From: an uncultured Candidatus Nitrosotenuis sp.
Lineage (GTDB): Archaea; Thermoproteota; Nitrososphaeria; Nitrososphaerales; Nitrosopumilaceae
Assembly (NCBI GenBank): GCA_964616415.1
Contig: CAZTUP010000006.1
Span: 155,129 to 195,128, forward strand
DNA: 40,000 nt
Direction of reading: 5' to 3'
In this document: positions 934 to 12,263 of the stretch, piece by piece
Numbering within the stretch: the stretch's first letter is position 1
Layout: every line of letters starts with the position of its first letter
Notes under the pieces: model-generated
Seen by the model: the letters and a program-made list of their open reading frames with translations, nothing else
The model's database searches: none
What the model was told of the DNA's origin: nothing
Position numbers and translations under genes: made by a program

Positions 934-3126
934 ATGAAGTACAAGGCAACTGAGCAGATCCTAAAGATCATCAAAAACAAGGAAAACATCCGTAACTTTG
1001 GTGTAATTGCTCACGTAGACCATGGAAAGACAACCATGAGTGACAACTTGCTGGGCTATGCAGGAATCATCTCACCTCAGGCTGCAGGTCGTGCGCTGGC
1101 CTTGGACTCTATGAAGCTTGAACAAGACCGTCAGATGACAATTGTTCAGGCAAACGTTACACTACTTTTCGAAAAAGCCGGTCAGGAATATGTCGTAAAC
1201 ATGATTGATACACCAGGACACATTGACTTTACAGGACGTGTCACCAGAAGCCTCAGGGCAATCGATGGCGCAGTCGTGGTATCTGATTCTGTAGAAGGTA
1301 TAATGACACAAACTGAAACTGTAACTCGACAGGCCCTAGAAGAGCGAGTCAGACCAGTTTTATACATCAACAAAATCGACAGACTCATCAAAGAGCTAAG
1401 ACTTACTCCTGAGAAAATGCAGGAATGGCTTGCAAACATTGTTTCTACTTTTAATGGATTAATCGACACATATGCAGAACCTGAATACAAGGAAAAATGG
1501 AAGGTCTCAATTCAGGATGGCTCTGTTTCATTTGGCTCTGCAAAGGACAGATGGGGATTCAATATCGACATCATGAAGGAAAAAGGAATCTCATTTAAGG
1601 ACATTTACGCAGCATACCAAGACGGCGCAAACGTTGATGATCTAGCAAAGAAAGCACCGCTGGCAGAAGCAGTACTTGGAATGGTTGTAAAGCACCACCC
1701 ACCACCACACGTTGCACAAAAATACAGAATTCCAAAAATCTGGAAAGGTGACTTGGAGTCTGATATTGGGAAAGCACTTTTGAATTGTGATGATAATGGT
1801 CCGGCAGTAATGATGATTGTAAACATGGCAATGGACCCTGCGGCAGGACCTGTCGCAATTGGGCGATTGTTCTCTGGAACCCTAAAAGATGGAATGCAGG
1901 TGCATCTAATTGATACTAAAAGAGAAGGCAAAATCCAATCTGTGAACTTTTTCATGGGCAACCAAAGAGAAATGGTCGGAGAACTGGGTGCTGGAAACAT
2001 TCCAGCTTTATTGGGACTAACTGAGGCCAGAGCAGGACAGACTTTGGCTACAGTCAAAGATGTTGCAATATTTGAGGGAATCAAATATGTCTCAGAGCCT
2101 GTCGTACAAATCGCAGTAGAGGCAAAATTCCCAAAAGACTTACCAAAACTTGTGGAAGCACTGCGTAGAATTACAATTGAGGATCCAAACCTTGTGGTAA
2201 AAATCAACGAGGAAAGCGGAGAGACTGTAATTGCTGGAATGGGCGTATTGCACTTGGAAATTGCTACCTCGCTAATTGGTGATGCCGGCGTTCAAATTGT
2301 AACATCGCAGCCTTTGATTAACTATAGAGAAACCATCCAGAGCGGCTCTGAAGTTGTAATGTCAAAATCACCAAACAGACACAACAAGATCTTTATGAAA
2401 GTAGAACCACTAGAACCAGAAATTGCTGACATGATACGAGCCGGTCAGCTATCTGAGATGAAGGACAAAAAAGAGATGGAAAATCTTTTGCGCTCTAAAG
2501 GATGGGATACTGATACTGCAAAACGTGTAATGAGATATGACTCTAGAGGAAACATTATGATCAACGGCACCAAAGGTGTCCAGTTTATCCAAGAATCAAC
2601 TGACTCTATTTTGTCTGGATTTGAGGAAGTAATGAAGGAAGGCCCACTGGCAAGAGAGCAGGTTAGAAATTGTAAATTCACATTTACTCACTTTGTTCCT
2701 CACGAGGACACTGCACACAGGGGTCTATCACAATTATCACCAGCAGCAAGACGCGCATGCATGGGTGCAATGCTAAAGGCACAACCAATACTATTAGAGC
2801 CAATGCTTGGAATCGAGGTCAGAGTACCACAGGACATGATCGGAAACGTTGCATCTGTTTTGTCTGGCAAAAGAGGCAAAGTCATGGACATGCAGCAAAA
2901 AGGTGTCACAAGCATCATAGTAGGCGAGATTCCAGCTTCTGAGACATTTGATATTTCTGAGGTAATGAGAGGCCAGACTGCCGGTAAAGCAATGTGGAAT
3001 ACACACTTTAAGGCGTGGACTCCAATGCCAAAATCAATCCAAGCCAATTTGATTGCTGAAACCAGAAAGAGAAAGGGATTACCACCAGACCCACCAACAG
3101 CAGACGAATTTATCGACAAAGAGTAA
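934..3126 (+). CDS. fusA: Translation elongation factor 2 (aEF-2), GTPase
   Basis: 730 aa. GTPase motifs are 'AHVDHGKTT' (G1), 'DTPGH' (G3) and 'NKID' (G4). The diphthamide-region 'HEDTAHRG' is typical of archaeal/eukaryotic EF-2. An A/T-rich TATA-like stretch lies at ~886-907 upstream. Confidence 0.97.
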   Translation: MKYKATEQILKIIKNKENIRNFGVIAHVDHGKTTMSDNLLGYAGIISPQAAGRALALDSMKLEQDRQMTIVQANVTLLFEKAGQEYVVNMIDTPGHIDFTGRVTRSLRAIDGAVVVSDSVEGIMTQTETVTRQALEERVRPVLYINKIDRLIKELRLTPEKMQEWLANIVSTFNGLIDTYAEPEYKEKWKVSIQDGSVSFGSAKDRWGFNIDIMKEKGISFKDIYAAYQDGANVDDLAKKAPLAEAVLGMVVKHHPPPHVAQKYRIPKIWKGDLESDIGKALLNCDDNGPAVMMIVNMAMDPAAGPVAIGRLFSGTLKDGMQVHLIDTKREGKIQSVNFFMGNQREMVGELGAGNIPALLGLTEARAGQTLATVKDVAIFEGIKYVSEPVVQIAVEAKFPKDLPKLVEALRRITIEDPNLVVKINEESGETVIAGMGVLHLEIATSLIGDAGVQIVTSQPLINYRETIQSGSEVVMSKSPNRHNKIFMKVEPLEPEIADMIRAGQLSEMKDKKEMENLLRSKGWDTDTAKRVMRYDSRGNIMINGTKGVQFIQESTDSILSGFEEVMKEGPLAREQVRNCKFTFTHFVPHEDTAHRGLSQLSPAARRACMGAMLKAQPILLEPMLGIEVRVPQDMIGNVASVLSGKRGKVMDMQQKGVTSIIVGEIPASETFDISEVMRGQTAGKAMWNTHFKAWTPMPKSIQANLIAETRKRKGLPPDPPTADEFIDKE

Positions 3127-3131
3127 AAATG
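3109..3131. repeat. Direct repeat copy 1 (casposon target-site duplication = last aEF-2 codons + stop)
   Basis: 'tttatcgacaaagagtaaaaatg' recurs exactly at 11551-11573. The outer 'aaaaatg' is shared with the TIR, so the true TSD is probably 13-16 bp ('(tt)tatcgacaaagagt'). Confidence 0.85.
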
Positions 3132-3180
3132 AGATCCCCCCGTTTTGTGCGGGAGAATCTGCTGTTTGTCGTAATGCTTA
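3125..3180 (+). repeat. Casposon left terminal inverted repeat (56 bp)
   Basis: 'aaaaatgagatccccccgttttgtgcgggagaatctgctgtttgtcgtaatgctta' is the exact reverse complement of 11498-11553, checked base by base. Confidence 0.92.
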
Positions 3181-3549
3181 AGAATTTGATTTAGCATCAT
3201 TCTGGAATTTATTAAAATATCTGTCTCTCACTAGACTGTCTCTTTTTCGACCTGCCTTTATTTGTGAAATTGACCATCTTCTCATCCAGAGTATTTTATT
3301 TTTAGTAATATAGTAATGTGATTGACATGGTAGACTCCAGTTTCCGATAGATGGATAGATTGAAACTGTTTCACCATCCCAAGTTAGTTCCCACTCAGAA
3401 GGCCTGATTGGTATTACAACGAGTTCACCGCATCCACAAGCACATCTATGTGTAGATGTAGCAAAAGGAATTGAAATGTACAGGATTCCTTCTTTTATTT
3501 CGTCAGGAATTAATTCAACAAATTCATGATTGATAGTATTTAGTTTCAT
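3178..3549 (-). CDS. DUF6527-type Cys-rich protein, candidate E2-like/zinc-binding partner of the E1
   Basis: 123 aa. The signature is 'HRCACGCGELVVIPIRPSEWELTWDGETVSIYPSIGNWSLPCQSHYYITKNKILW' (C36, C38, C40, C75, H34, H78). The start overlaps the E1 stop as ATGA (3546-3549). The stop codon lies inside the TIR. Family assignment is from memory of the family pattern, not a search. Confidence 0.7.
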   Translation of the reverse strand: MKLNTINHEFVELIPDEIKEGILYISIPFATSTHRCACGCGELVVIPIRPSEWELTWDGETVSIYPSIGNWSLPCQSHYYITKNKILWMRRWSISQIKAGRKRDSLVRDRYFNKFQNDAKSNS

Positions 3550-4733
3550 TCAATATCATCATTTACGATTTCATTACACCCAATACTATACGTAGAATAG
3601 TGCTCATTTTCTAATTTATCATAGAACCCACACATTTTCTTCCATTTGATAACTGCCATGACGGCATTTAGGGCATTAATATCGGCTATTTGAATATTAG
3701 ATGAATATTCATCATCCTCATCCCTTCCAGAAAGAATTCTTGTTTTTGCGTGTTCATAAAAAGAAGCAGTGCATGTTGTCACTTGAGTTGAGCCGGTCAA
3801 TACTTCATTCGTTTTATCAATGCCAATTCCTACGTCAATGAATCGGATCTTCTTTTCTAATAGATATCTCACGATGGATTTTCTAGATGGAATTTTATCT
3901 ACACAGACAAATACCATGTCCATTGAATCTAGTTTAGAGGCATTTGATTCAGTAATAAATTCCGGATGTGGAAAAATTTTTCGGTGCATTCTGGAATAGA
4001 TTTCTGTAAACCACTCTACTTTTGGCATACCTTTTTCCAGATCTTTTCTGGTGGGTGCACCTGGTGATCTGAACGCATTATGATAATGGAATTCATCCCC
4101 ATCGAAAAGATGGATTTCTTCCACTGGTGTTTTAGCGATAAGATCGAGGATGTATGATCCTGTTCCACCTAAACCGACTATTGCGATTCGACCTTTTAAT
4201 TTTTCATTAATTGATATGATGCCTGCGCGACTTGAGGCAGTATCATAATAATTGAAGACAGATTCTTGTTCCGTGAGTGGGGTTTGTTTAAACGTCCTTG
4301 CAGTCACACTGTCATCTATGGCACGCGCCTGATTTTCAATTAAATGTACATAGTGTTCAATTTTTTTAAAGTAATTTTCGTATTTCCCGCCTTCGGTTGG
4401 TTTTTGTGAAAAAATATGTTTAGCCACAAGTCCTTCTTTGATTTTCTCATTGTTTGCGCCCCCTCCTAAACTATTCATCTGTGAGCCATTGTGATCACAG
4501 GGATAGTCTTCAGTCCATAATATTTGATGATCGTTCGGAGTCATTTTGAAACCTGTTATTGTGGAATGTGAAATTATTGAACCTCTCAGTATCTGTTTTT
4601 TAGCATTCACATACGGTACGTTATGAATAACTACGTCACTGTTAATAATCTCGATTTCATAACCTGCATTTATGATCTGTTGTAGATCATCATTATGACT
4701 TATTAGATCTGTGAACGTCAAAGCGCATTCCAT
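3546..4733 (-). CDS. ThiF/MoeB/E1-like adenylyltransferase with ~175-aa N-terminal extension
   Basis: 395 aa. It has the Rossmann 'IAIVGLGGTGSYILDLIA', the nucleotide/Arg-finger block 'LFDGDEFHYHNAFRSPG' (compare the ThiF DxDxVxxSNLxRQ) and a Mg-Asp 'VFVCVDK'. A Cys/Ser/Thr-rich loop 'TGSTQVTTCTAS' follows. An alternative TTG start lies at codon 5. Confidence 0.85.
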   Translation of the reverse strand: MECALTFTDLISHNDDLQQIINAGYEIEIINSDVVIHNVPYVNAKKQILRGSIISHSTITGFKMTPNDHQILWTEDYPCDHNGSQMNSLGGGANNEKIKEGLVAKHIFSQKPTEGGKYENYFKKIEHYVHLIENQARAIDDSVTARTFKQTPLTEQESVFNYYDTASSRAGIISINEKLKGRIAIVGLGGTGSYILDLIAKTPVEEIHLFDGDEFHYHNAFRSPGAPTRKDLEKGMPKVEWFTEIYSRMHRKIFPHPEFITESNASKLDSMDMVFVCVDKIPSRKSIVRYLLEKKIRFIDVGIGIDKTNEVLTGSTQVTTCTASFYEHAKTRILSGRDEDDEYSSNIQIADINALNAVMAVIKWKKMCGFYDKLENEHYSTYSIGCNEIVNDDIE

Positions 4734-4941
4734 TGACTACGTTAACATGCTTTCCTTCTACAAGGGTGCCTTTAGAATTGTCAGGCCCATGCGTGTACAT
4801 GACAGCAAACATCTCATCTGCACCATGTGATGGAAATGCCAGGTTAACTACTTCTGTGTAGCTTATTGTCTCCTTTTCCCATGTCTTATGTTGACCATTG
4901 ACAAATATCTGAAATTTGTCATGATGTCCTTTATCTTCCAT
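4693..4941 (-). CDS. Single-domain multiubiquitin-type ubiquitin-like (beta-grasp) protein
   Basis: 82 aa. 'KFQIFVNGQHKTWEKETISYTEVVNLAF...GTLVEGKHVNVVNGMRFDV' matches the remembered multiubiquitin-domain pattern (xIxVNGxxxxxxxxxISyxxVvxLAF...vxxGMxFxV). It is the first gene of the operon and overlaps the E1 ORF by 41 nt. Confidence 0.7.
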   Translation of the reverse strand: MEDKGHHDKFQIFVNGQHKTWEKETISYTEVVNLAFPSHGADEMFAVMYTHGPDNSKGTLVEGKHVNVVNGMRFDVHRSNKS

Positions 4942-5054
4942 AGTGATAGTTATAGTACGATGGTAATACGTTTGTCGATCGACTGATTATTGACCTTAGG
5001 TTAGTGCTATTTTGACAACATGTAGTCATCTAGAGTTTATGAGCAACTATCATG

Positions 5055-6917
5055 TCATATTTCGCTTTCCGGCTCATACTTTTCATCCTCAAACCAATCA
5101 ATTTCCTCTTTTGATATGATATTACCGACCAAATCAATAGGAATTGGATATGAATCGCAAAATGTCCCATCATGTAAAGACTTTAGATCAGAAAACCAGA
5201 ATCTTTTCTTGTCAGAATTTAGGTTAATTTTCCTCTCATATGGTTTGATTTGACCCACCTTGCTTAGTTTATTGAACAAAATCCCTGATTTGATATGTGT
5301 AGTCCTTGTGGTCTTGACTCGGATGTAAAACTGGCCGTCCCTGTCTATTTTGGAATCAATATGCTCTATTTCCTGTCTTTTTTCATGGTCAAAGCCTATT
5401 CCACGCTTTTTCCAAATCCCATTAAAACGATAAAACCCGTTGGACAGAAAAATGGCATCCGAGCCAGATTTGTCTAATTTCATCTGTCCAAGTTCTGGGC
5501 TGTCAAGACCTTCAATTTTCTTTCTACACGCTATAGAATCTGTAGCAAAAGCCACAACATCATTTTCCAAACCATATTTTTTAACAAAAGAGTACAGTTG
5601 CGCGCGAACAAATCCAGTTACGTATGATGCAATAACCGGGTTGAACAGGTTTCCCATCATTTGATTTGTTTTCTGCGCAGTTTTGCCATAAATTGAATTC
5701 AATATGATTTTGATTGGCTGTTGTAGTGGATTGTTTTGTTGTTTTAGATGTAGTCGTTTTTGATACATTGATTCAATAAAATTCTTGAATGGGCGTATAG
5801 AATTTTTGTTTGGAATAAACTGATATGATTCTAGTATTTTGTATTGGATTTGCGGATCATTGATTGCTCTTAGCTCATCTAGTGTGACAAAAGTCTTGAA
5901 TTGTCCTGACGGATAACAAATCGTTCCGTTCTTTTTTCTAAATGGAAATGGTGCAATTTTGACCTTTGGTGATACATTCGTATGTATGTAAAAAAATCCA
6001 ATCGCTGCATTATTCAAAACGCGGTTTGCTCTAATCCACCTACCTTTAATGAAATCTTGTATGGTTGTAAGGGCATATGGGTACGCAGAATTGACATCAT
6101 ATAGATAACACTCTCCAATGAACCCGCGCCGAATTAGTTCAAATCTTCCACCATAAAACGACTTTCTTGCCATTTCTTGGACTTCGTATTCTGTTTCATT
6201 AAACAGTGGAATGTTAATTCCATTATTGATCAAGACTTTTTCTGCCAGATAACCTGCCGAAATCCAATTTGCTGAATAAAATTGGAATACATCATAAAAC
6301 GTCTTAATCCAGTGTTCTGCCAAGTCTCGCGTAAAAATACAATCTTGGATGCAATAGTCTCTAACCTGATTTTTGTGCCTAGAATAGTAGAATTTTGATA
6401 AAATATTCCGTTTTTTCTTCATTTGCAGATATTCGGAGTCTAAATTCTTGATATTCTTGGCATATGCATCAGCAAGTGGAGCATTTTCATAGTATTGTGC
6501 AATGTCATAACAGTTTATCGAGTGATGATTTTTTGAAATGGTGAGTTTTCTTCTTTCAATATAATGAATTCTAAATCCATTGTATTGAAAGCATAATTCT
6601 TTTTTCCATAGATATGATTGCAGTATTTCTTTTGGCAATAGCTTCAAAATACATTCTGCATCATATCCCAAATTGTAAAAGAAAATCCATCGTCCTTCAT
6701 GCCTGAAAAGGAATTTCACTATTGTTTCAAATGTGATGTTTTGATCTAGGTAATTTCCTTGTGAGTCGGCAATTAGAAAGATGTTTCCAATGTCAGTTTC
6801 TGTGTCAATTCCAATTATTTCCCTTGATATATCAATTCGATTTGGACTGCGATTTTGTTTTCTAACTCTGATTCCGTCTAGTGTTCTATAATTAGAAATT
6901 GGAATAAAAAAATTCAT
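5055..6917 (-). CDS. Family B DNA polymerase, protein-primed (pPolB) type
   Basis: Exonuclease motifs are 'GIDTETD' (ExoI), 'YNLGYDAECIL' (ExoII) and 'YCIQDCIF' (ExoIII). Polymerase motifs are 'YDVNSAYPYAL' (A), 'KIILNSIYGKT' (B) and 'FATDSI' (C). The start is trimmed from the track's 7052 to the ATG at 6917, which forms an ATGA overlap with the upstream gene's stop. Confidence 0.9.
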   Translation of the reverse strand: MNFFIPISNYRTLDGIRVRKQNRSPNRIDISREIIGIDTETDIGNIFLIADSQGNYLDQNITFETIVKFLFRHEGRWIFFYNLGYDAECILKLLPKEILQSYLWKKELCFQYNGFRIHYIERRKLTISKNHHSINCYDIAQYYENAPLADAYAKNIKNLDSEYLQMKKKRNILSKFYYSRHKNQVRDYCIQDCIFTRDLAEHWIKTFYDVFQFYSANWISAGYLAEKVLINNGINIPLFNETEYEVQEMARKSFYGGRFELIRRGFIGECYLYDVNSAYPYALTTIQDFIKGRWIRANRVLNNAAIGFFYIHTNVSPKVKIAPFPFRKKNGTICYPSGQFKTFVTLDELRAINDPQIQYKILESYQFIPNKNSIRPFKNFIESMYQKRLHLKQQNNPLQQPIKIILNSIYGKTAQKTNQMMGNLFNPVIASYVTGFVRAQLYSFVKKYGLENDVVAFATDSIACRKKIEGLDSPELGQMKLDKSGSDAIFLSNGFYRFNGIWKKRGIGFDHEKRQEIEHIDSKIDRDGQFYIRVKTTRTTHIKSGILFNKLSKVGQIKPYERKINLNSDKKRFWFSDLKSLHDGTFCDSYPIPIDLVGNIISKEEIDWFEDEKYEPESEI

Positions 6918-7279
6918 GGACTTGGATTGCGCCAAGCCACATCTGGAATGTCTGTTTCCAGTCCTTGTTTGTGCTTTTTGAATGCGGAACGAATTTCTTT
7001 TAGCGACATGTCGATTGGATAATTTTCCTTGATTGCTTTGAAGTATCTCCAAGATGTCTTCATTTTGGCAGAGCGATTCTCGTTTGCCTTGATTAATCGT
7101 TGGATTACATCCTCTGTGGTTTTGGTCATTTTGGCAATCTTGGCGTTAAGGACACTTTTTTCGCCTTCCAATTGTCGTCTGAACTTTTTTAAAAACGCAG
7201 TCTCTCGAAATTCAGAGAGACGTTCGATTTCTTTTGTTATTCGTTCTATTTCGCTTCGTAGTTTTTCTAGTTTAGTCAT
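6914..7279 (-). CDS. Hypothetical coiled-coil/basic protein translationally coupled to PolB
   Basis: 121 aa. It has an N-terminal heptad-like 'LEKLRSEIERITKEIERLSEF' and a basic C-terminal half. Its stop overlaps the PolB ATG. Confidence 0.55.
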   Translation of the reverse strand: MTKLEKLRSEIERITKEIERLSEFRETAFLKKFRRQLEGEKSVLNAKIAKMTKTTEDVIQRLIKANENRSAKMKTSWRYFKAIKENYPIDMSLKEIRSAFKKHKQGLETDIPDVAWRNPSP

Positions 7280-7313
7280 TAACTAGTTTTATAGTACTAT
7301 ACTCTATGAAGAA

Positions 7314-7964
7314 GTGATAGAGCTAATGGCAAAATCTAGTGAATATACGCGAGAATTAAGTGAAAAACAAATCAAAACTTTACAAGCCAGATACAAGGGT
7401 TACATAAAACGCACTAGACGTGGATTCCTATCAACCAGTGAAAAAGAAAAACTGCTAAAAATCAGAAAATGGCAAGAGTCAGATGCTGAGATCTCTCAGT
7501 TTTTTTATGAGGTTAGAGAGAGTGCAAAAACTGCTTTTACTGACTTTGTGTTATTATGTGACACGTTAAATGAAAAAGAAATCGAGAGCATATTTTCAAA
7601 CAATTATTCTAAAACAGAATTATCCAAAATGCCAGACAGCATGAATTTCGAATTAATGGAACAGTATTACAGAAGTCATCCAATATTCAAAGATGTAATA
7701 CGATATATATTACAGGATCGTTCTGTTGTATCACTAAGTAATGTCAAGTCAGCAAAGAAATTAGAATTATTTTTGGATGATTCGTGGCAGGCCTATTTGG
7801 CACATGACTTGATTCGAATATGTTTGCAGTTCTTTAGGGAACACGGTTTTATTTCTACAAAAGCTCATGAACGACTTGCAGAAGAAGTGGAAGACATGAT
7901 AAATGTGGAAGTGTCACGCGGAATCAAACTAAAAAGACATGAGCGAACCAAAGGTTTTGTTTAG
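7314..7964 (+). CDS. Hypothetical protein (casposon cargo)
   Basis: 216-aa ORF divergent from the PolB operon. It starts at GTG 7314 or ATG 7326. No recognisable motif. Confidence 0.5.
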   Translation: MIELMAKSSEYTRELSEKQIKTLQARYKGYIKRTRRGFLSTSEKEKLLKIRKWQESDAEISQFFYEVRESAKTAFTDFVLLCDTLNEKEIESIFSNNYSKTELSKMPDSMNFELMEQYYRSHPIFKDVIRYILQDRSVVSLSNVKSAKKLELFLDDSWQAYLAHDLIRICLQFFREHGFISTKAHERLAEEVEDMINVEVSRGIKLKRHERTKGFV

Positions 7965-8008
7965 ATCAAAGATCAAATACTATTCATTCGCATATTTCAT
8001 TATCAAAG

Positions 8009-8260
8009 ATGTTCAGGTTTGTACGAAAATATAGGAAAATAAACGAAGATAACAGAAAACTAGTCGTTACGAATCAAGAATGGATACCGGATCATCAGGC
8101 GGACTTAGAGTGTGAAGAAGCAATCATCGAAGATAGACGCCGATTCGGCAGAGTACGGACACATCTAATGAGGCATTTACGACAGAAATATGGCTCCAAG
8201 ACGGCAAATAGGGCAATGTGGAGAGTAGGTAAACGAGGATCGAGAGATTCACGAGTATGA
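8009..8260 (+). CDS. Hypothetical small basic protein (casposon cargo)
   Basis: 83-aa Arg/Lys-rich ORF on the same strand as 7314..7964. No motif recognised. Confidence 0.4.
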   Translation: MFRFVRKYRKINEDNRKLVVTNQEWIPDHQADLECEEAIIEDRRRFGRVRTHLMRHLRQKYGSKTANRAMWRVGKRGSRDSRV

Positions 8261-8337
8261 ATCGTTTTAGTGTTGCATCATTTCAAATTAATTTCGATTT
8301 TTATAATAATGATCTAGAAAATATGAGTCCAAATACA

Positions 8338-9630
8338 TCACCGTATTAATTTTTGAGATGTGACAAGATATTTTTTGATCATGGTATTTTTTGGGTCTAA
8401 TTTTAGTGCCTTGTTATACCATTTTATTGCATCTTTGTGTTTTCCTAGATTACCTAATGCTATACCTTTGTTGCCAACTAGGACTGAATTATTTGGAACT
8501 AGTTTCAGTGCCTTGTTATACCACACCAAAGATTGTTTGTCTTTGTGAAGATAACCTAAAGCTGTACCTTTATTCATAAGCGCAGTTGCATCTTTGGGGT
8601 TGATCTTTAGTAGCTCATCTGAACAGATTATTGTTTCCTCATATTTTTGTAGTTTAAGTAATGCGGTGCTTTTGTTTGCAAGGGCGTTTGAATTTTTTGG
8701 TTCATTTTTCAAAGTTTTATTAAAAAATTCTAATGCTTTCTTATGCATACCTAAACTCCCAAATGCAGCTCCAATATTGTTTAGGGTAGTAATATCTTTA
8801 GGATTAATCTTCAGTGCCTTGTTATACCACTTTAGGGCCTCTCGAGGTTTGCCCAAGTTAAACAATGCAAATCCGATACTTCGTAGTGTAATGGCATCAT
8901 CTGAGTTTAGTTTCAAGGATTTATGAAACCACTTTAGGGCTTCACGGTGTTTTCCTAGATTACCTAATGCTATGCCAATAGCACCGACCGTTATCGCATC
9001 ATCTGAGTTTAGTTTCAAGGATTTATGAAACCACTTTAGGGCTTCACGGTGTTTGCCAAGTTTATCTAATGCGAGTCCAATGTTTGATATTACGATCGCA
9101 TCTTTAGGATTAATCTTCAGTGCCTTGTTATACCACTTTAGCGCCTCCTTGGTTTTCCCTAGGCGAGATAATACAACACCTGTGTTAACTGTCGAATTCA
9201 GATGTTTCGGATTGATGTTCAGCGCTTTTTCAAAATATTTCAAAGCAGCACGTAATTTACCCGACTCCCCAAGTTTAACTCCCTTGTAGGATAATGTACT
9301 TACATCACGCGGATTGAGCATAAGTACACGATCAAAATATTTCATAGCATGTTCAGGTTTATTCAATTTGGAGAATACAACTCCAATGCCACGTAATGCG
9401 TCTAAATTATTTGGATCATATTGCAAAATCTTACTGCCCAAAGTAAGAATTTTGTCATATCGTTTAATTTCAAACATATAATTAATTTGTTTTAATGCTG
9501 TTTGCAGATCAAAAGGTGCTCCCATCTCAGTATTCTTCAAAGATGATTCTAATCGATCAATTTTGCTTTCCAATTTAGACATCTTTAATTGTAATTTTTT
9601 TGGAATTCGTGTTCTTGTTTTCTGAATCAA
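8338..9630 (-). CDS. Tetratricopeptide (TPR) repeat protein, ~10 repeats
   Basis: 430 aa. It has a 34-aa periodicity with recurring 'EALKWYNKALKINPKD', after an N-terminal coiled-coil. Confidence 0.85.
   Translation of the reverse strand: MIQKTRTRIPKKLQLKMSKLESKIDRLESSLKNTEMGAPFDLQTALKQINYMFEIKRYDKILTLGSKILQYDPNNLDALRGIGVVFSKLNKPEHAMKYFDRVLMLNPRDVSTLSYKGVKLGESGKLRAALKYFEKALNINPKHLNSTVNTGVVLSRLGKTKEALKWYNKALKINPKDAIVISNIGLALDKLGKHREALKWFHKSLKLNSDDAITVGAIGIALGNLGKHREALKWFHKSLKLNSDDAITLRSIGFALFNLGKPREALKWYNKALKINPKDITTLNNIGAAFGSLGMHKKALEFFNKTLKNEPKNSNALANKSTALLKLQKYEETIICSDELLKINPKDATALMNKGTALGYLHKDKQSLVWYNKALKLVPNNSVLVGNKGIALGNLGKHKDAIKWYNKALKLDPKNTMIKKYLVTSQKLIR
8894..9054. repeat. Tandem 102-bp-period duplication inside the TPR gene (59 bp identical core)
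   Basis: 8894-8952 and 8996-9054 are identical ('gcatcatctgagtttagtttcaaggatttatgaaaccactttagggcttcacggtgttt'). Both encode 'GKHREALKWFHKSLKLNSDDA'. Confidence 0.85.
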
Positions 9631-10136
9631 TTTGAACGCTCCAAGTTAAGATCCGGTTTTACCTCAGTCATAACATTATGAGAGTCCAAGATCTTATTCA
9701 ACTCTTCAATGGATTCCTCATATTCAAACGCTTTATTGACTGCTTCAAGATTTTGTTCTAAGAACTTTTCTAATTTCTTTGGATTATTCTCCAAAACAAT
9801 CAAGGTTGTTTGTAAGGCATATAACTTTCCTAACACTTTATCTCTACGTCTAAGATGTATTGTCCTTTCTATAGTTCCGAATCCATACATTTTTGCACTC
9901 TTACATTGATCAAACTGAAAATCATCCATTAAAATTGCAAGCGCTGATGCTTTTCGATTAATTTTCTTTGTTACTTTAAGATTTGAAAATTTGAATATTG
10001 TTGGAATTTCTCCATCCATAGAAAAATCAGTACTTCTCCAAGGATATTCTTTCTTACAACAGAGCTTATCCCTTCTAAATAATCCCACGAATTTAAAATA
10101 TATCTCATTTTTATAAGCATGATCTAAAATTGACAT
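9627..10136 (-). CDS. Hypothetical protein downstream of cas1 (casposon)
   Basis: 169-aa ORF. It overlaps the cas1 3' end by 26 nt and the TPR gene start by 4 nt. No motif recognised. Confidence 0.5.
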   Translation of the reverse strand: MSILDHAYKNEIYFKFVGLFRRDKLCCKKEYPWRSTDFSMDGEIPTIFKFSNLKVTKKINRKASALAILMDDFQFDQCKSAKMYGFGTIERTIHLRRRDKVLGKLYALQTTLIVLENNPKKLEKFLEQNLEAVNKAFEYEESIEELNKILDSHNVMTEVKPDLNLERSN

Positions 10137-11190
10137 TAATACAAGAATTACGAAAATCCTGAATCATATTTTTAACAATAGTAATTTCTTGACACATTGA
10201 CATCCCATCCTCCCTTTTCAATCCATGTTTGAATTCATATGGTCTTTCAGACTGGAATTTCCTTTCTAATACTTCCAAGAACCTTCGAATCAGATCAGAA
10301 TCCATTACAACATTTCCATCTCTAGTATGAGTGTAATCCTTGAATCGTATTCCGTTCCTATCAAGAATAGAGAATTTGTAAACCGAATATTCAACTAACC
10401 AGCGAAAAGGTTCTATCAAATCATACACTAATGCTTGAAACGAGGTGTCTTGTTTATGATAAAACCCATAGTAAGGATCAAGACCCAAACCATTGATAAA
10501 CTTGGCAATCTCACCAGCTAATACAGTATAACCATAATTCAAGAGCGCATTGATCACATTTGAGGCATAGCGTTTTGAATTGACAAGACCACCGCCACGC
10601 CTAGATGAAAAGCCATGTCTTGCAGGAATGAGTTTGGTATAATTTAGAAAATAGTATCTTCCGCTTCCGGCTTCAATCTTGATTAATTCCTTGAGGTCTG
10701 TCTTTGAATCAATTTGAGAATGACACTGTTCCAGTTTTGAGATTCCATTTTGTAATTCTGGGTTTTCTAAAGATTTGAAGAAATTGATTTGAGATTGGAT
10801 TTTCTCTTTTAGAATCCATTTTTGTAATTGCAATACTTTGATTGGATCTCGAAATGTGTCATACTGACCCATCCTGTATTTTATTGCGGTATTGGAAACC
10901 ATTCCACCATTCATGAAGGAAACTGGATTGCCGTAGGTGTCAGTTAGAATTACGTTGATGTTGTTTTGGTTTAGAATGGAGATTGCTTCTGTGGAAACGT
11001 AGCCTTTTCCAGAGATTACAATTTTTTCGTAGGGAATTTTGGATACAAACCATTCCTCTTTACTCGAGATTCCTGTAATGTCATTTTGACCATTTTTTAG
11101 AATGAGTTTGTTATCTTTGACATTTATAGAAATTCCATAACCACGAAGCAATTTGACGTTATAGTGATTACGTTTACCACCTAAAGTCAA
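10111..11190 (-). CDS. cas1: Cas1-family integrase (casposase)
   Basis: 359 aa with a TTG start. The overall Cas1 layout is an N-terminal beta-domain 'NHYNVKLLRGYGISINVKDNKLILK' and a C-terminal helical catalytic domain ('LIEPFRWLVE'). It lies next to a TIR with no cas2 or array, which is the context typical of casposons. Confidence 0.85.
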   Translation of the reverse strand: MTLGGKRNHYNVKLLRGYGISINVKDNKLILKNGQNDITGISSKEEWFVSKIPYEKIVISGKGYVSTEAISILNQNNINVILTDTYGNPVSFMNGGMVSNTAIKYRMGQYDTFRDPIKVLQLQKWILKEKIQSQINFFKSLENPELQNGISKLEQCHSQIDSKTDLKELIKIEAGSGRYYFLNYTKLIPARHGFSSRRGGGLVNSKRYASNVINALLNYGYTVLAGEIAKFINGLGLDPYYGFYHKQDTSFQALVYDLIEPFRWLVEYSVYKFSILDRNGIRFKDYTHTRDGNVVMDSDLIRRFLEVLERKFQSERPYEFKHGLKREDGMSMCQEITIVKNMIQDFRNSCINVNFRSCL

Positions 11191-11192
11191 GT

Positions 11193-11477
11193 CTATAATT
11201 TGTCGATTTTACGAATGATTTGTTGTTGTATAATAACAAGTAAAATCATCCCAACTGCAAATAGAAAAATTCCAAATTGCGAATAAACGCTACCAATTAT
11301 TGTAAATAGTTTTATCTCCTCTTCTGCCTTTGAAGTAGCATCCAAGCCAATTGTGACACCCAAAATAAATAATGAGGCTCCAAAAATCGCAATAATAGAT
11401 CCAGTAGTTGTTACTACAGTTAATTGTGCATTTAATTTTGCAAGTTTTTTATCAAAATCATACCTATCCATTAACAA
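11193..11477 (-). CDS. Small membrane protein (2-3 TM) between right TIR and cas1
   Basis: 94 aa with hydrophobic segments 'IIAIFGASLFILGVTIGL' and 'FGIFLFAVGMILLVII'. It ends 2 nt before the cas1 start. Confidence 0.5.
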   Translation of the reverse strand: MLMDRYDFDKKLAKLNAQLTVVTTTGSIIAIFGASLFILGVTIGLDATSKAEEEIKLFTIIGSVYSQFGIFLFAVGMILLVIIQQQIIRKIDKL

Positions 11478-11497
11478 GTATTATCAATTGCAAACAA

Positions 11498-11553
11498 TAA
11501 GCATTACGACAAACAGCAGATTCTCCCGCACAAAACGGGGGGATCTCATTTTT
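11498..11553 (-). repeat. Casposon right terminal inverted repeat (56 bp)
   Basis: Exact reverse complement of 3125-3180. Confidence 0.92.
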
Positions 11554-11573
11554 ATCGACAAAGAGTAAAAATG
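11551..11573. repeat. Direct repeat copy 2 (target-site duplication; non-coding copy of the aEF-2 3' end)
   Basis: Identical to 3109-3131. Confidence 0.85.
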
Positions 11574-11621
11574 CAAAGCCCCCCCTCTTGGGCACAAAAA
11601 CTGAAGCTATTTCGTTATGAC
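11567..11621 (+). repeat. Degenerate TIR of a second, decayed casposon
   Basis: 'aaaaatgcaaagccccccctcttgggcacaaaaactgaagctatttcgttatgac' aligns by eye at roughly 60% with the intact TIR. Shared pieces are 'aaaaatg', the C6-7 run, 'ctg' and 'tttNcgtNatg'. It sits in the position expected for a TIR beside the TSD. Confidence 0.5.
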
Positions 11622-11686
11622 TAGATTATGACGTTAGTTAGGATTTGTTGGAAATCTGATAAATACAATATTGATTCTTTATTATT

Positions 11687-11974
11687 GTGGTTAAACAGGC
11701 TCCAGTAAGCATTGGATGGCAAACTGCGATGATCTTTATCCCGTATGCTTGGATTTACGGATTTTATAGAATTGAAAAACTCAGATTAGGCCTTGTTCTC
11801 CTGTTAATGGATTTTGGAATTACACTTGGAGCCAACATATTGTTTACTTGGCTTGGTTTTCCACCATATACAGTACTTGCAGTATGGATCGTTGTAGTCA
11901 TTTCATTGCCAGTTCGTTTCATACGAAAATGGTCTCGTGAATGGAATAGTAAATTTTCGTCTAGTGTATCTTGA
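11687..11974 (+). CDS. Small membrane protein (remnant casposon), syntenic with 11193..11477
   Basis: 95 aa with a GTG start and 2-3 TM segments. Its stop TGA overlaps the TTG of the cas1 fragment. Confidence 0.45.
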   Translation: MVKQAPVSIGWQTAMIFIPYAWIYGFYRIEKLRLGLVLLLMDFGITLGANILFTWLGFPPYTVLAVWIVVVISLPVRFIRKWSREWNSKFSSSVS

Positions 11975-12068
11975 CACTAAAAGGAAAGAAAAATCACTAC
12001 AATGTAAAATTTCTCAAAGGCTACGGTCATTCTGTTTCCCTCAAAGACAACAAAATAATTTTGAAAAT
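11971..12068 (+). pseudogene. cas1: Truncated cas1 (first ~32 codons only)
   Basis: 'MTLKGKKNHYNVKFLKGYGHSVSLKDNKIILK' matches the intact casposase N-terminus 'MTLGGKRNHYNVKLLRGYGISINVKDNKLILK' at 23/32 residues. Similarity stops abruptly at ~12068. The rest of track ORF 11971..12240 is unrelated low-complexity sequence. Confidence 0.8.
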
Positions 12069-12089
12069 GATCAATACCACTTCTAGTTT

Positions 12090-12263
12090 CTACATGTGTT
12101 TATCAAGAAAGCATTTTTCACATACTGTGCTGTCTAACCGGCTCATTGCAAATTCAATCTGTTTTTTATCTAGTCGCCCATGCTGTATGGTATTCAGAAG
12201 TTTCTCTTTATCAATTGGCTCAAACTCTTCATTACAGTGACATTTTTCACACTGACATTTCAT
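12090..12263 (-). CDS. Small Cys-rich (zinc-finger-like) protein, 57 aa, absent from the ORF track
   Basis: Hand translation gives MKCQCEKCHCNEEFEPIDKEKLLNTIQHGRLDKKQIEFAMSRLDSTVCEKCFLDKHM. It has a CxCxxCxC cluster plus CxxC. It lies antisense to the non-homologous tail of ORF 11971..12240. Confidence 0.4.
   Translation of the reverse strand: MKCQCEKCHCNEEFEPIDKEKLLNTIQHGRLDKKQIEFAMSRLDSTVCEKCFLDKHM

Follow-up and report, generated by a model that had tools for sequence, protein, structure and literature searches.

We describe the remains of a second casposon that abut an intact one behind the aEF-2 gene of a Candidatus Nitrosotenuis genome. Casposons are self-replicating transposons. In the window, by which we mean the whole 40-kb stretch of DNA analysed, an intact family-1 casposon of 8.4 kb (3125-11553) is placed right behind the aEF-2 stop codon, and a short segment (11567 to ~12070) faces it across a shared target-site duplication (TSD). 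It is very probable, in our assessment, that this segment (the stub) is a surviving end of an older family-1 casposon of another lineage, and that the intact casposon inserted later, in the opposite orientation. Because the segment has no PolB, one terminal inverted repeat (TIR) and no second TSD, it is a casposon remnant and not a casposon proper. An initial annotation of this DNA had claimed a decayed second casposon, inverted and abutting the intact one across the TSD, and repeated use of the aEF-2 site. These claims are borne out by a TIR profile, by a cas1 match (E 2e-14), by the architecture of L104, L108 and L139, by L115 and L117 (L-numbers such as L094, and P0001, are labels of comparison loci and contigs) and by sister strains that have the stub without the intact element. 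The features of the junction and the stub are as follows.

11554-11566, plus strand: second TSD copy, the junction common to the intact casposon and the stub; exact repeat of 3112-3124
11567-11621, plus strand: terminal repeat assigned to the older, decayed casposon, cas1-proximal end; profile match 11568-11619, E 4.3e-5
11622-11686, plus strand: conserved subterminal region with ACTAGAT..ACG, GATTTGTTGGA at 11642-11652 and an A/T-rich TATA-like box, GATAAATACA
11687-11974, plus strand: stub cargo, an open reading frame (ORF) for a 95-aa two-transmembrane (two-TM) protein with two hydrophobic segments
11971-12039, plus strand: cas1 5′ fragment, part 1, codons 1-23; variable among three strain alleles, 77-83% identity to L094/L095
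12040-12089, plus strand: cas1 5′ fragment, part 2, codons 24 to ~33, and a deletion junction of ~15-20 nt; no difference from L094 or L095 (100% identity)
12090-12263, minus strand: zn57, a 57-aa Cys-rich host protein whose gene converges on aEF-2 where the site is empty; synteny with L012 and L013

Shared junction and anatomy of the stub

A direct repeat of 23 bp, TTTATCGACAAAGAGTAAAAATG, occurs at 3109 and 11551. Experiments on the Ca. N. koreensis AR1 family-1 casposon have determined its TSD as 13 bp, ATTGATAAAGAGT, with a minimal TTT leader (Wang et al. 2021, PMC8464041). By homology to this experimentally defined sequence, the true TSD here is the 13-bp ATCGACAAAGAGT, at 3112-3124 and 11554-11566. 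The leading TTT of the 23-bp repeat is the aEF-2 leader at the left copy and the TIR tip at the right copy, and the trailing AAAAATG is the start common to both TIRs. Since the TSD is 13 bp long and ends at 11566, the second element starts at 11567. The right-hand TSD copy of the initial annotation is thus present at 11554-11566, now corrected to 13 bp within the 23-bp repeat, and the start of the TIR-like sequence that it placed at 11567-11621 agrees with ours. As in a tandem array, one TSD is shared between two elements (TIR 11498-11553, TSD 11554-11566, TIR 11567-11621); n+1 TSD copies and a TIR pair for each element are lacking, with two TSD copies for two elements. No third TSD copy was found in the window at up to 3 mismatches, and a search of the window with the TIR profile recovered no distal or inverted TIR of the stub, which extends to the full 40 kb what had been stated up to ~13 kb. 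An inverted TSD-like 13-mer in zn57, ATTGATAAAGAGA (12203-12215, minus strand), has 3 mismatches and was rejected, since 14.4 such matches are expected by chance and 15 were observed. This 13-mer encodes ..PIDKE.., resembling FIDKE of the aEF-2 C-terminus.

The TIR profile was built from the sequences behind the aEF-2 TSD in 22 other genomes. It has three matches only in the window, namely the left and right TIRs of the intact casposon (E 6.7e-12 each) and 11568-11619 (E 4.3e-5), the latter spanning the full model length; the next-best match in the window has an E-value of 1.1. In pairwise comparison with the resident TIR, the stub TIR reached a modest local score of 22, attained by 2 of 2000 shuffles and 4 of 2476 genomic windows. 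The stretch 11551-11655, comprising the TSD, the TIR and the start of the motif, is 88.6% identical to the sequence right behind aEF-2 in L011 and 94% identical to that in L095. Sequence of this kind stands right behind aEF-2 in many genomes of several genera, as it would if the TIR-like sequence and the motif were native host DNA (either a terminator or a promoter for the gene that follows) and only the cas1 fragment were foreign. However, truly empty sites (L013, L015, L052, L027 and others) are without it, complete casposons give the profile an inverted match at their distal end, with a TSD behind it (L029, L023, L126, L139 and others), and the motif is also found away from aEF-2, at the cas1-proximal ends of L078 (4880/5901), L103 and L145. 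We regard a host origin as very improbable.

Inward of the TIR, the GATTTGTTGGA motif and the TATA-like box span 11642-11668, the box lying ~20 nt upstream of the start codon; at the cas1-proximal end of many family-1 casposons across genera, box and motif lie ~25 and ~50 nt upstream of the first gene, respectively. The motif occupies the same place in ~20 loci of several genera, including beside full-length cas1, and in L028 it starts ~50 nt upstream of the cas1 start codon with no gene between. The subterminal block is likely the promoter/operator of the casposase operon and is, in the stub, the putative promoter of the first gene inside the casposon end. In L002, the GATTTGTTGGA and TATA-like block is duplicated, ahead of two successive genes. 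The first gene of the stub encodes the 95-aa protein, which compared with P0001/L002 shows 80% amino acid identity and a ratio of nonsynonymous to synonymous divergence (dN/dS) of ~0.10, with saturated synonymous sites; the gene evolves under purifying selection and is probably live, with expression from the conserved subterminal region. A small membrane-protein gene ahead of cas1 had been noted in the initial annotation as mirroring the right end of the intact element. The gene is indeed present at 11687-11974, but the mirrored order is positional only, and homology between the two small membrane proteins (94 aa and 95 aa) was rejected as not significant (22% identity, E 0.067).

The Cas1 of the stub retains only its first ~33 codons, which are clearly homologous to family-1 casposases, a compact clade that lacks the HTH, and form no functional gene. 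Over the first 32 codons, 23 residues are identical to the intact casposase (72%; BLASTP E 2e-14), the same count as had been made before, and DNA homology of the fragment to cas1 genes ends at ~12069 (+/-10), where a stop at ~12068 had been proposed. The fragment has a possible 1-nt deletion near 12064. A candidate C/D-box snoRNA (snoR117, Rfam) overlapping it at 11971-12049 (minus strand) scored 21.6 bits against a gathering score of 42 (E 0.09) and was taken as a chance match; no clear C/D boxes were seen by eye in this interval. No PolB homology was found in the window downstream of 11567, and the host flank begins at 12090-12095. L013 is a true empty site, in which the zn57 stop lies ~25 nt from the aEF-2 stop with zero casposon sequence between, and the genes beyond zn57 are also syntenic in L012 and L013. 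From this empty site and the synteny of zn57, it follows that the old element was lost from cas1 codon ~33 through its distal TIR and TSD; the deletion perhaps clips the last codon or two of zn57. What is left has one TIR and one adjacent TSD copy, and the same stub lies right behind the aEF-2 stop and TSD in sister strains and related species, as befits integration at the aEF-2 3′ end.

The cas1 fragment belongs to a casposase lineage other than the resident's, marked at the sequence level by NHYNVKFLKGYGHSVSLKDNKIILKN. It is identical to the full-length cas1 of L104 at 80 of 96 nt (83%), compared with 62 of 96 (65%) for the resident cas1, and it is 88-94% identical in amino acid sequence to many metagenomic Cas1 N-termini. 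This closeness to the L104 lineage excludes that the 5′ end of the resident cas1 was duplicated locally, the scenario by which the initial annotation thought that its claim could be refuted. A diverged, inverted partial duplication of the whole resident right end (TIR plus cas1 5′ end) would account for the inverted position adjoining that end and for the 72% amino acid identity over 32 residues. However, strains and species without the resident element also carry the stub, the fragment is nearer to the other lineage in nucleotide and amino acid sequence alike (88-94% vs 72% for the latter), the intervening genes are unrelated, and the resident element is without the subterminal GATTTGTTGGA motif. 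We assign this origin next to no probability.

Sister strains and order of events

Four contigs from other samples (L094-L097) were found by exact look-up of the aEF-2 protein of the window, to which theirs is 100% identical. Their flanks show 97.6-99.6% nucleotide identity to the window. None of them has the 8.4-kb casposon, and the stub TIR and motif stand directly behind the aEF-2 TSD. The last 50 nt of the stub, which span an unusual ATTTTGAAAATGATCAATACCAC segment and the boundary to the host gene, are identical at 50 of 50 positions in every sister contig reaching far enough. Since the stub junction is identical in sister strains without the intact element, the truncation took place in a common ancestor, before the intact casposon, which by comparison with L094-L097 is confined to the window lineage. 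The simplest reading is a recent insertion of the intact casposon into a leader-TSD target left whole by the stub. The three-step history of the initial annotation stands as regards the older integration and the later insertion in the opposite orientation, but the internal deletion, which it had placed last, came before the intact casposon (L094-L097).

We propose that an older family-1 casposon would have integrated at the aEF-2 3′ end with its cas1 end toward aEF-2. Next, the stretch from cas1 codon ~33 to the host gene's stop codon (12090), with the distal TIR and TSD in it, would have been deleted, leaving over the TIR, the promoter-like motif, the 95-aa cargo gene under purifying selection and the cas1 5′ fragment. 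The intact casposon (3125-11553), which is of another lineage, would have come afterwards and integrated at the same leader-TSD in the opposite orientation, duplicating the 13-bp ATCGACAAAGAGT and shifting the stub away from aEF-2. The integration mechanism is presumed to be that of the N. koreensis casposase, which needs only the TTT leader and the 13-bp TSD (PMC8464041). The two targets are near-identical (TTT plus ATTGATAAAGAGT vs ATCGACAAAGAGT), and a site followed by an old TIR should therefore remain a good target; the species and the casposon differ.

Several points weigh against this history. Presence and absence among strains cannot by themselves separate late insertion from precise excision, and a family-2 casposon of Methanosarcina mazei has been shown to excise precisely, with one target site left behind (PMC10359463). 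The right TSD copy also has a TTT, the TIR tip, ahead of it, so that integration there is mechanistically conceivable. With no surviving distal TIR or third TSD, the former extent of the stub cannot be reconstructed. In pairwise comparison the stub TIR is only modestly similar to the resident TIR, and an assembly join at the 23-bp repeat is formally possible.

Two of these points would suit a younger stub, one that inserted at the distal TSD copy, with the TTT from the TIR end as its 'leader', and then decayed, while the sisters lost the intact element by precise excision of the kind documented in M. mazei. Such a course needs independent precise excisions in the lineages of L094 and L095/L096, and the pristine element, with 57-nt identical TIRs and open ORFs, must predate the heavily deleted one. 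Moreover, the more distant L011, L002, L016, L012 and L026 have stub-type ends after aEF-2 and no intact element. A younger stub seems very unlikely to us, and we infer insertion, not precise excision, as the direction of events. The alternative of an assembly artefact, in which an intact casposon and a stub allele from different strains were joined at the 23-bp repeat, draws on the evident co-existence of alleles with and without the casposon in related populations and on the many contigs that break just after aEF-2. However, the join is biologically expected, as in this lineage the casposon must precede the TSD copy and then the stub, and back-to-back TIRs across the 13-bp TSD occur in at least 12 independent metagenome contigs. 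We see very little chance that the junction is artefactual, and retain the insertion of the intact casposon beside an older stub.

Variable cargo in the stub

The slot between TIR and cas1 holds three unrelated genes in near-identical strains: the 95-aa two-TM protein in the window, a 192-aa multi-TM protein in L095 and L096, and a 193-aa HEPN_AbiV protein in L094. The two alternative genes, and the identity of their alleles to the window from left to right, are listed here.

L094:12312-12893: HEPN_AbiV protein, 193 aa (PF18728, E 8.5e-11)
L095:12310-12888: multi-TM protein, 192 aa
aEF-2 and upstream: L094 98-99%, L095 98%
TIR to motif: L094 77%, L095 94%
Cargo: L094 none, L095 none
cas1 nt 1-69: L094 77%, L095 83%
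nt 70 (12040) to the host gene: L094 100%, L095 100%
Downstream: L094 98.5%, L095 99.6%

The breakpoints lie inside the TIR and in the cas1 fragment at nt ~70. The stub TIR is itself a mosaic, its first 18 nt being common to the window and L094 and its inner part to the window and L095. A homologue of the 192-aa protein occupies the TIR-cas1 slot of L119, a casposon with full-length cas1 (E 9e-20), and the gene in this slot differs in every casposon examined, with sometimes no gene at all. These sequence comparisons suggest that the left part of the stub was replaced repeatedly by recombination with incoming casposons. By the likeliest route, a new element would insert in the same orientation and the stretch between the direct cas1 5′ repeats would then be deleted, with a double crossover as the alternative; no intermediate of a cargo swap was found in the same population.

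The stub may have served as a recombination platform, with the aEF-2 3′ end, TIR and motif on one side and the cas1 5′ stub on the other as homology arms for successive cargo, a proposal to which we give an even chance. Each round of insertion and deletion would then renew the stub and exchange its cargo. If this is true, the stub is not inert debris. The differing cargo of the strains, a HEPN/AbiV-type gene included, hints that dead casposon ends help to build a small, variable and possibly defence-related island beside an essential gene. We found no description of this cargo-swapping polymorphism in the literature compared, the sole aspect of the finding of which this can be said.

Related loci, precedents and the resident casposon

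An aEF-2 scan of one genome per archaeal species yielded 80 loci. In most loci of Nitrosotenuis, Nitrosotalea and several other Nitrosopumilaceae, a casposon TIR, of the form AAA(A/T)(A/G)..CCCCCC.., follows right after the aEF-2 stop, and a subset, the stub included, carries the subterminal block ACTAGAT..ACG..GTTAGGATTTGTTGGA and then an A/T-rich TATA-like box. A metagenome scan with the stub-lineage casposase yielded 76 loci, dozens of them with full-length cas1 (334-359 aa). In L104, L108 and L139, the aEF-2 3′ end is followed by the TSD, a TIR, the GATTTGTTGGA block, one gene and full-length cas1, which is the undecayed form of 11554-12070. The orientation of cas1 relative to aEF-2 varies, being distal in L029 and L078 and proximal in L034, L023 and L104. 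L115 (6020-8724) and L117 (3146-5850) each have two full-length cas1 genes diverging from a TIR/TSD/TIR junction and so present, without decay, the head-to-head arrangement of two family-1 casposons that the window has in decayed form; beyond it there is a third cas1 5′ fragment, of 52 codons. L126 has two complete casposons in an array behind aEF-2. Solo TIRs or remnants occur as well, L094-L097, L011, L002, L012, L016 and L026 having a TIR, with or without a stub, after aEF-2 and no complete casposon. Collectively, these loci suggest that in Nitrosotenuis, Nitrosotalea and other Nitrosopumilaceae it is the rule, not the exception, for aEF-2 to be followed by a casposon end or stub.

Three further ideas were rejected. 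Preferential retention of ~30-codon cas1 stubs is not seen, N-terminal fragments in 170 loci spanning 22 to ~320 codons continuously. The impression that the stub lineage is known only as fragments (37 matches, 48-150 aa) arose artificially from short contigs and from retrieval by word index. L002 was discarded as a simple ancestral empty site, as it has another cas1 breakpoint, an extra gene and saturated synonymous divergence; its stub may be an independent decay product.

Individual loci showed other states of the site. L011 (12190-14592), the closest GTDB genome, has a stub-type TIR right after aEF-2 and, ~1.1-1.4 kb further on, both an insertion sequence (IS) integrase-core fragment (rve_3, E 7.7e-6, 26.0 bits against a Pfam cut-off of 26.5 bits) and a minus-strand stub-lineage cas1 cut by the contig end; it is a different state of the same aEF-2 hotspot. 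In L058 (3203-3388), a 22-codon cas1 5′ fragment is fused in frame to a PolB fragment from near residue 453, an internal deletion that joins the two signature genes of a casposon. At the casposon-free loci L013 (~4300-4350) and L015, the aEF-2 3′ end reads ATAGATAAGGAATAG and not ATCGACAAAGAGTAA; the casposase target may be absent there, or the aEF-2 terminus may have been homogenised in casposon-bearing lineages.

The finding is a new, well-supported example of a known arrangement, a decayed family-1 stub beside an intact casposon. That family-1 casposons integrate site-specifically at the 3′ end of aEF-2 has been known since 2014 (PMC4046053), and two family-1 casposons, NitNF5-C1 and NitNF5-C2, lie in tandem at ef-2 of Ca. 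Nitrosopumilus adriaticus NF5 (Krupovic et al. 2019, PMC6563490). The NF5 tandem shares with the window the family, the aEF-2 3′-end target and the re-use of one site. By contrast, both NF5 elements are complete, whereas the second element here is a one-ended stub (TIR, cargo and 33 cas1 codons), the genus is Nitrosotenuis, and the elements stand head-to-head with their cas1 ends abutting. For family 2, work on Methanosarcina in 2016 (PMC4779613) reported solo-TIR remnants, insertion in either orientation at one site and tandem arrays that contain inactivated copies; remnants and solo TIRs are described from M. mazei, and Methanolobus psychrophilus has a degraded casposon of the adjacent kind (Krupovic et al. 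2016, PMC4779613; 2014, PMC4046053). These too are decay products at the target, beside or in place of full elements and in both orientations at one site; unlike the window stub, they are family-2 elements at tRNA or intergenic sites, and the stub keeps a probably live cargo gene and a cas1 remainder, with cargo that is polymorphic among near-identical strains. Tn7-type accumulation at attTn7 (glmS) is likewise site-specific insertion downstream of an essential gene, and in both attTn7 and CRISPR arrays, with their leader-proximal, polarised insertion, newer units lie beside the recognition sequence while older ones are displaced and decay. The analogy is one of logic only, since the Tn7 enzymes are unrelated and the units of CRISPR arrays are spacers, not transposons. 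No report of a casposon in Nitrosotenuis was found in the casposon literature compared.

The arrangement in the window is a well-controlled natural instance of a family-1 casposase target that stays usable after a first integration, of integration in both orientations, and of older elements that lose their place beside the recognition sequence, with decay starting at their far end, the same polarity logic that has been proposed to link casposons to CRISPR arrays. Current views are not overturned; the NF5 tandem and the M. mazei solo-TIR observations are extended to a new genus, as specialists would expect, with cargo exchange as a plausible and testable extra.

The host gene and the resident casposon comprise the following features.

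934-3126, plus strand: aEF-2, host gene whose last codons are the target
3112-3124, plus strand: first TSD copy, ATCGACAAAGAGT, in the last aEF-2 codons with the TTT leader ahead; exact repeat of 11554-11566
3125-3180, plus strand: left TIR of the intact casposon; TIR profile E 6.7e-12
10111-11190, minus strand: casposase Cas1, 359 aa; PF01867, E 1e-48
11193-11477, minus strand: 94-aa membrane protein, cargo of the TIR-cas1 slot; ORF with two hydrophobic segments
11498-11553, minus strand: right TIR of the intact casposon; TIR profile E 6.7e-12

The host aEF-2 is 98% identical to that of metagenome-assembled genome (MAG) SAW241 and 96% identical to those of two other Nitrosotenuis-type MAGs, and the host is Candidatus Nitrosotenuis. 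All family-1 hallmarks tested are present in the intact casposon, namely Cas1, a protein-primed PolB (PF03175, E 5.5e-27), TIRs, the TSD and the aEF-2 target; its ORFs are all open, and its TIR arms of 57 nt are 100% complementary (3124-3180 / 11498-11554). Its cas1 is on the minus strand, at the end distal to aEF-2. The resident Cas1 is 90% identical to that of the L029 casposon, and an exact-sequence look-up matched no other contig. A three-gene cargo at 3178-4941 (minus strand) encodes DUF6527 (PF20137, E 2.5e-23), DUF6791-ThiF E1-like (PF20590, E 1e-45; PF00899, E 1e-16) and Multiubiquitin-domain (PF14452, E 2e-11) proteins, which we take to be a ubiquitination-like operon of a type proposed as anti-virus defence, here aboard an archaeal casposon. 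The element also encodes a 430-aa TPR protein (8338-9630, minus strand) that contains eight tandem units of 102 nt, 61-72% identical to the reference copy.

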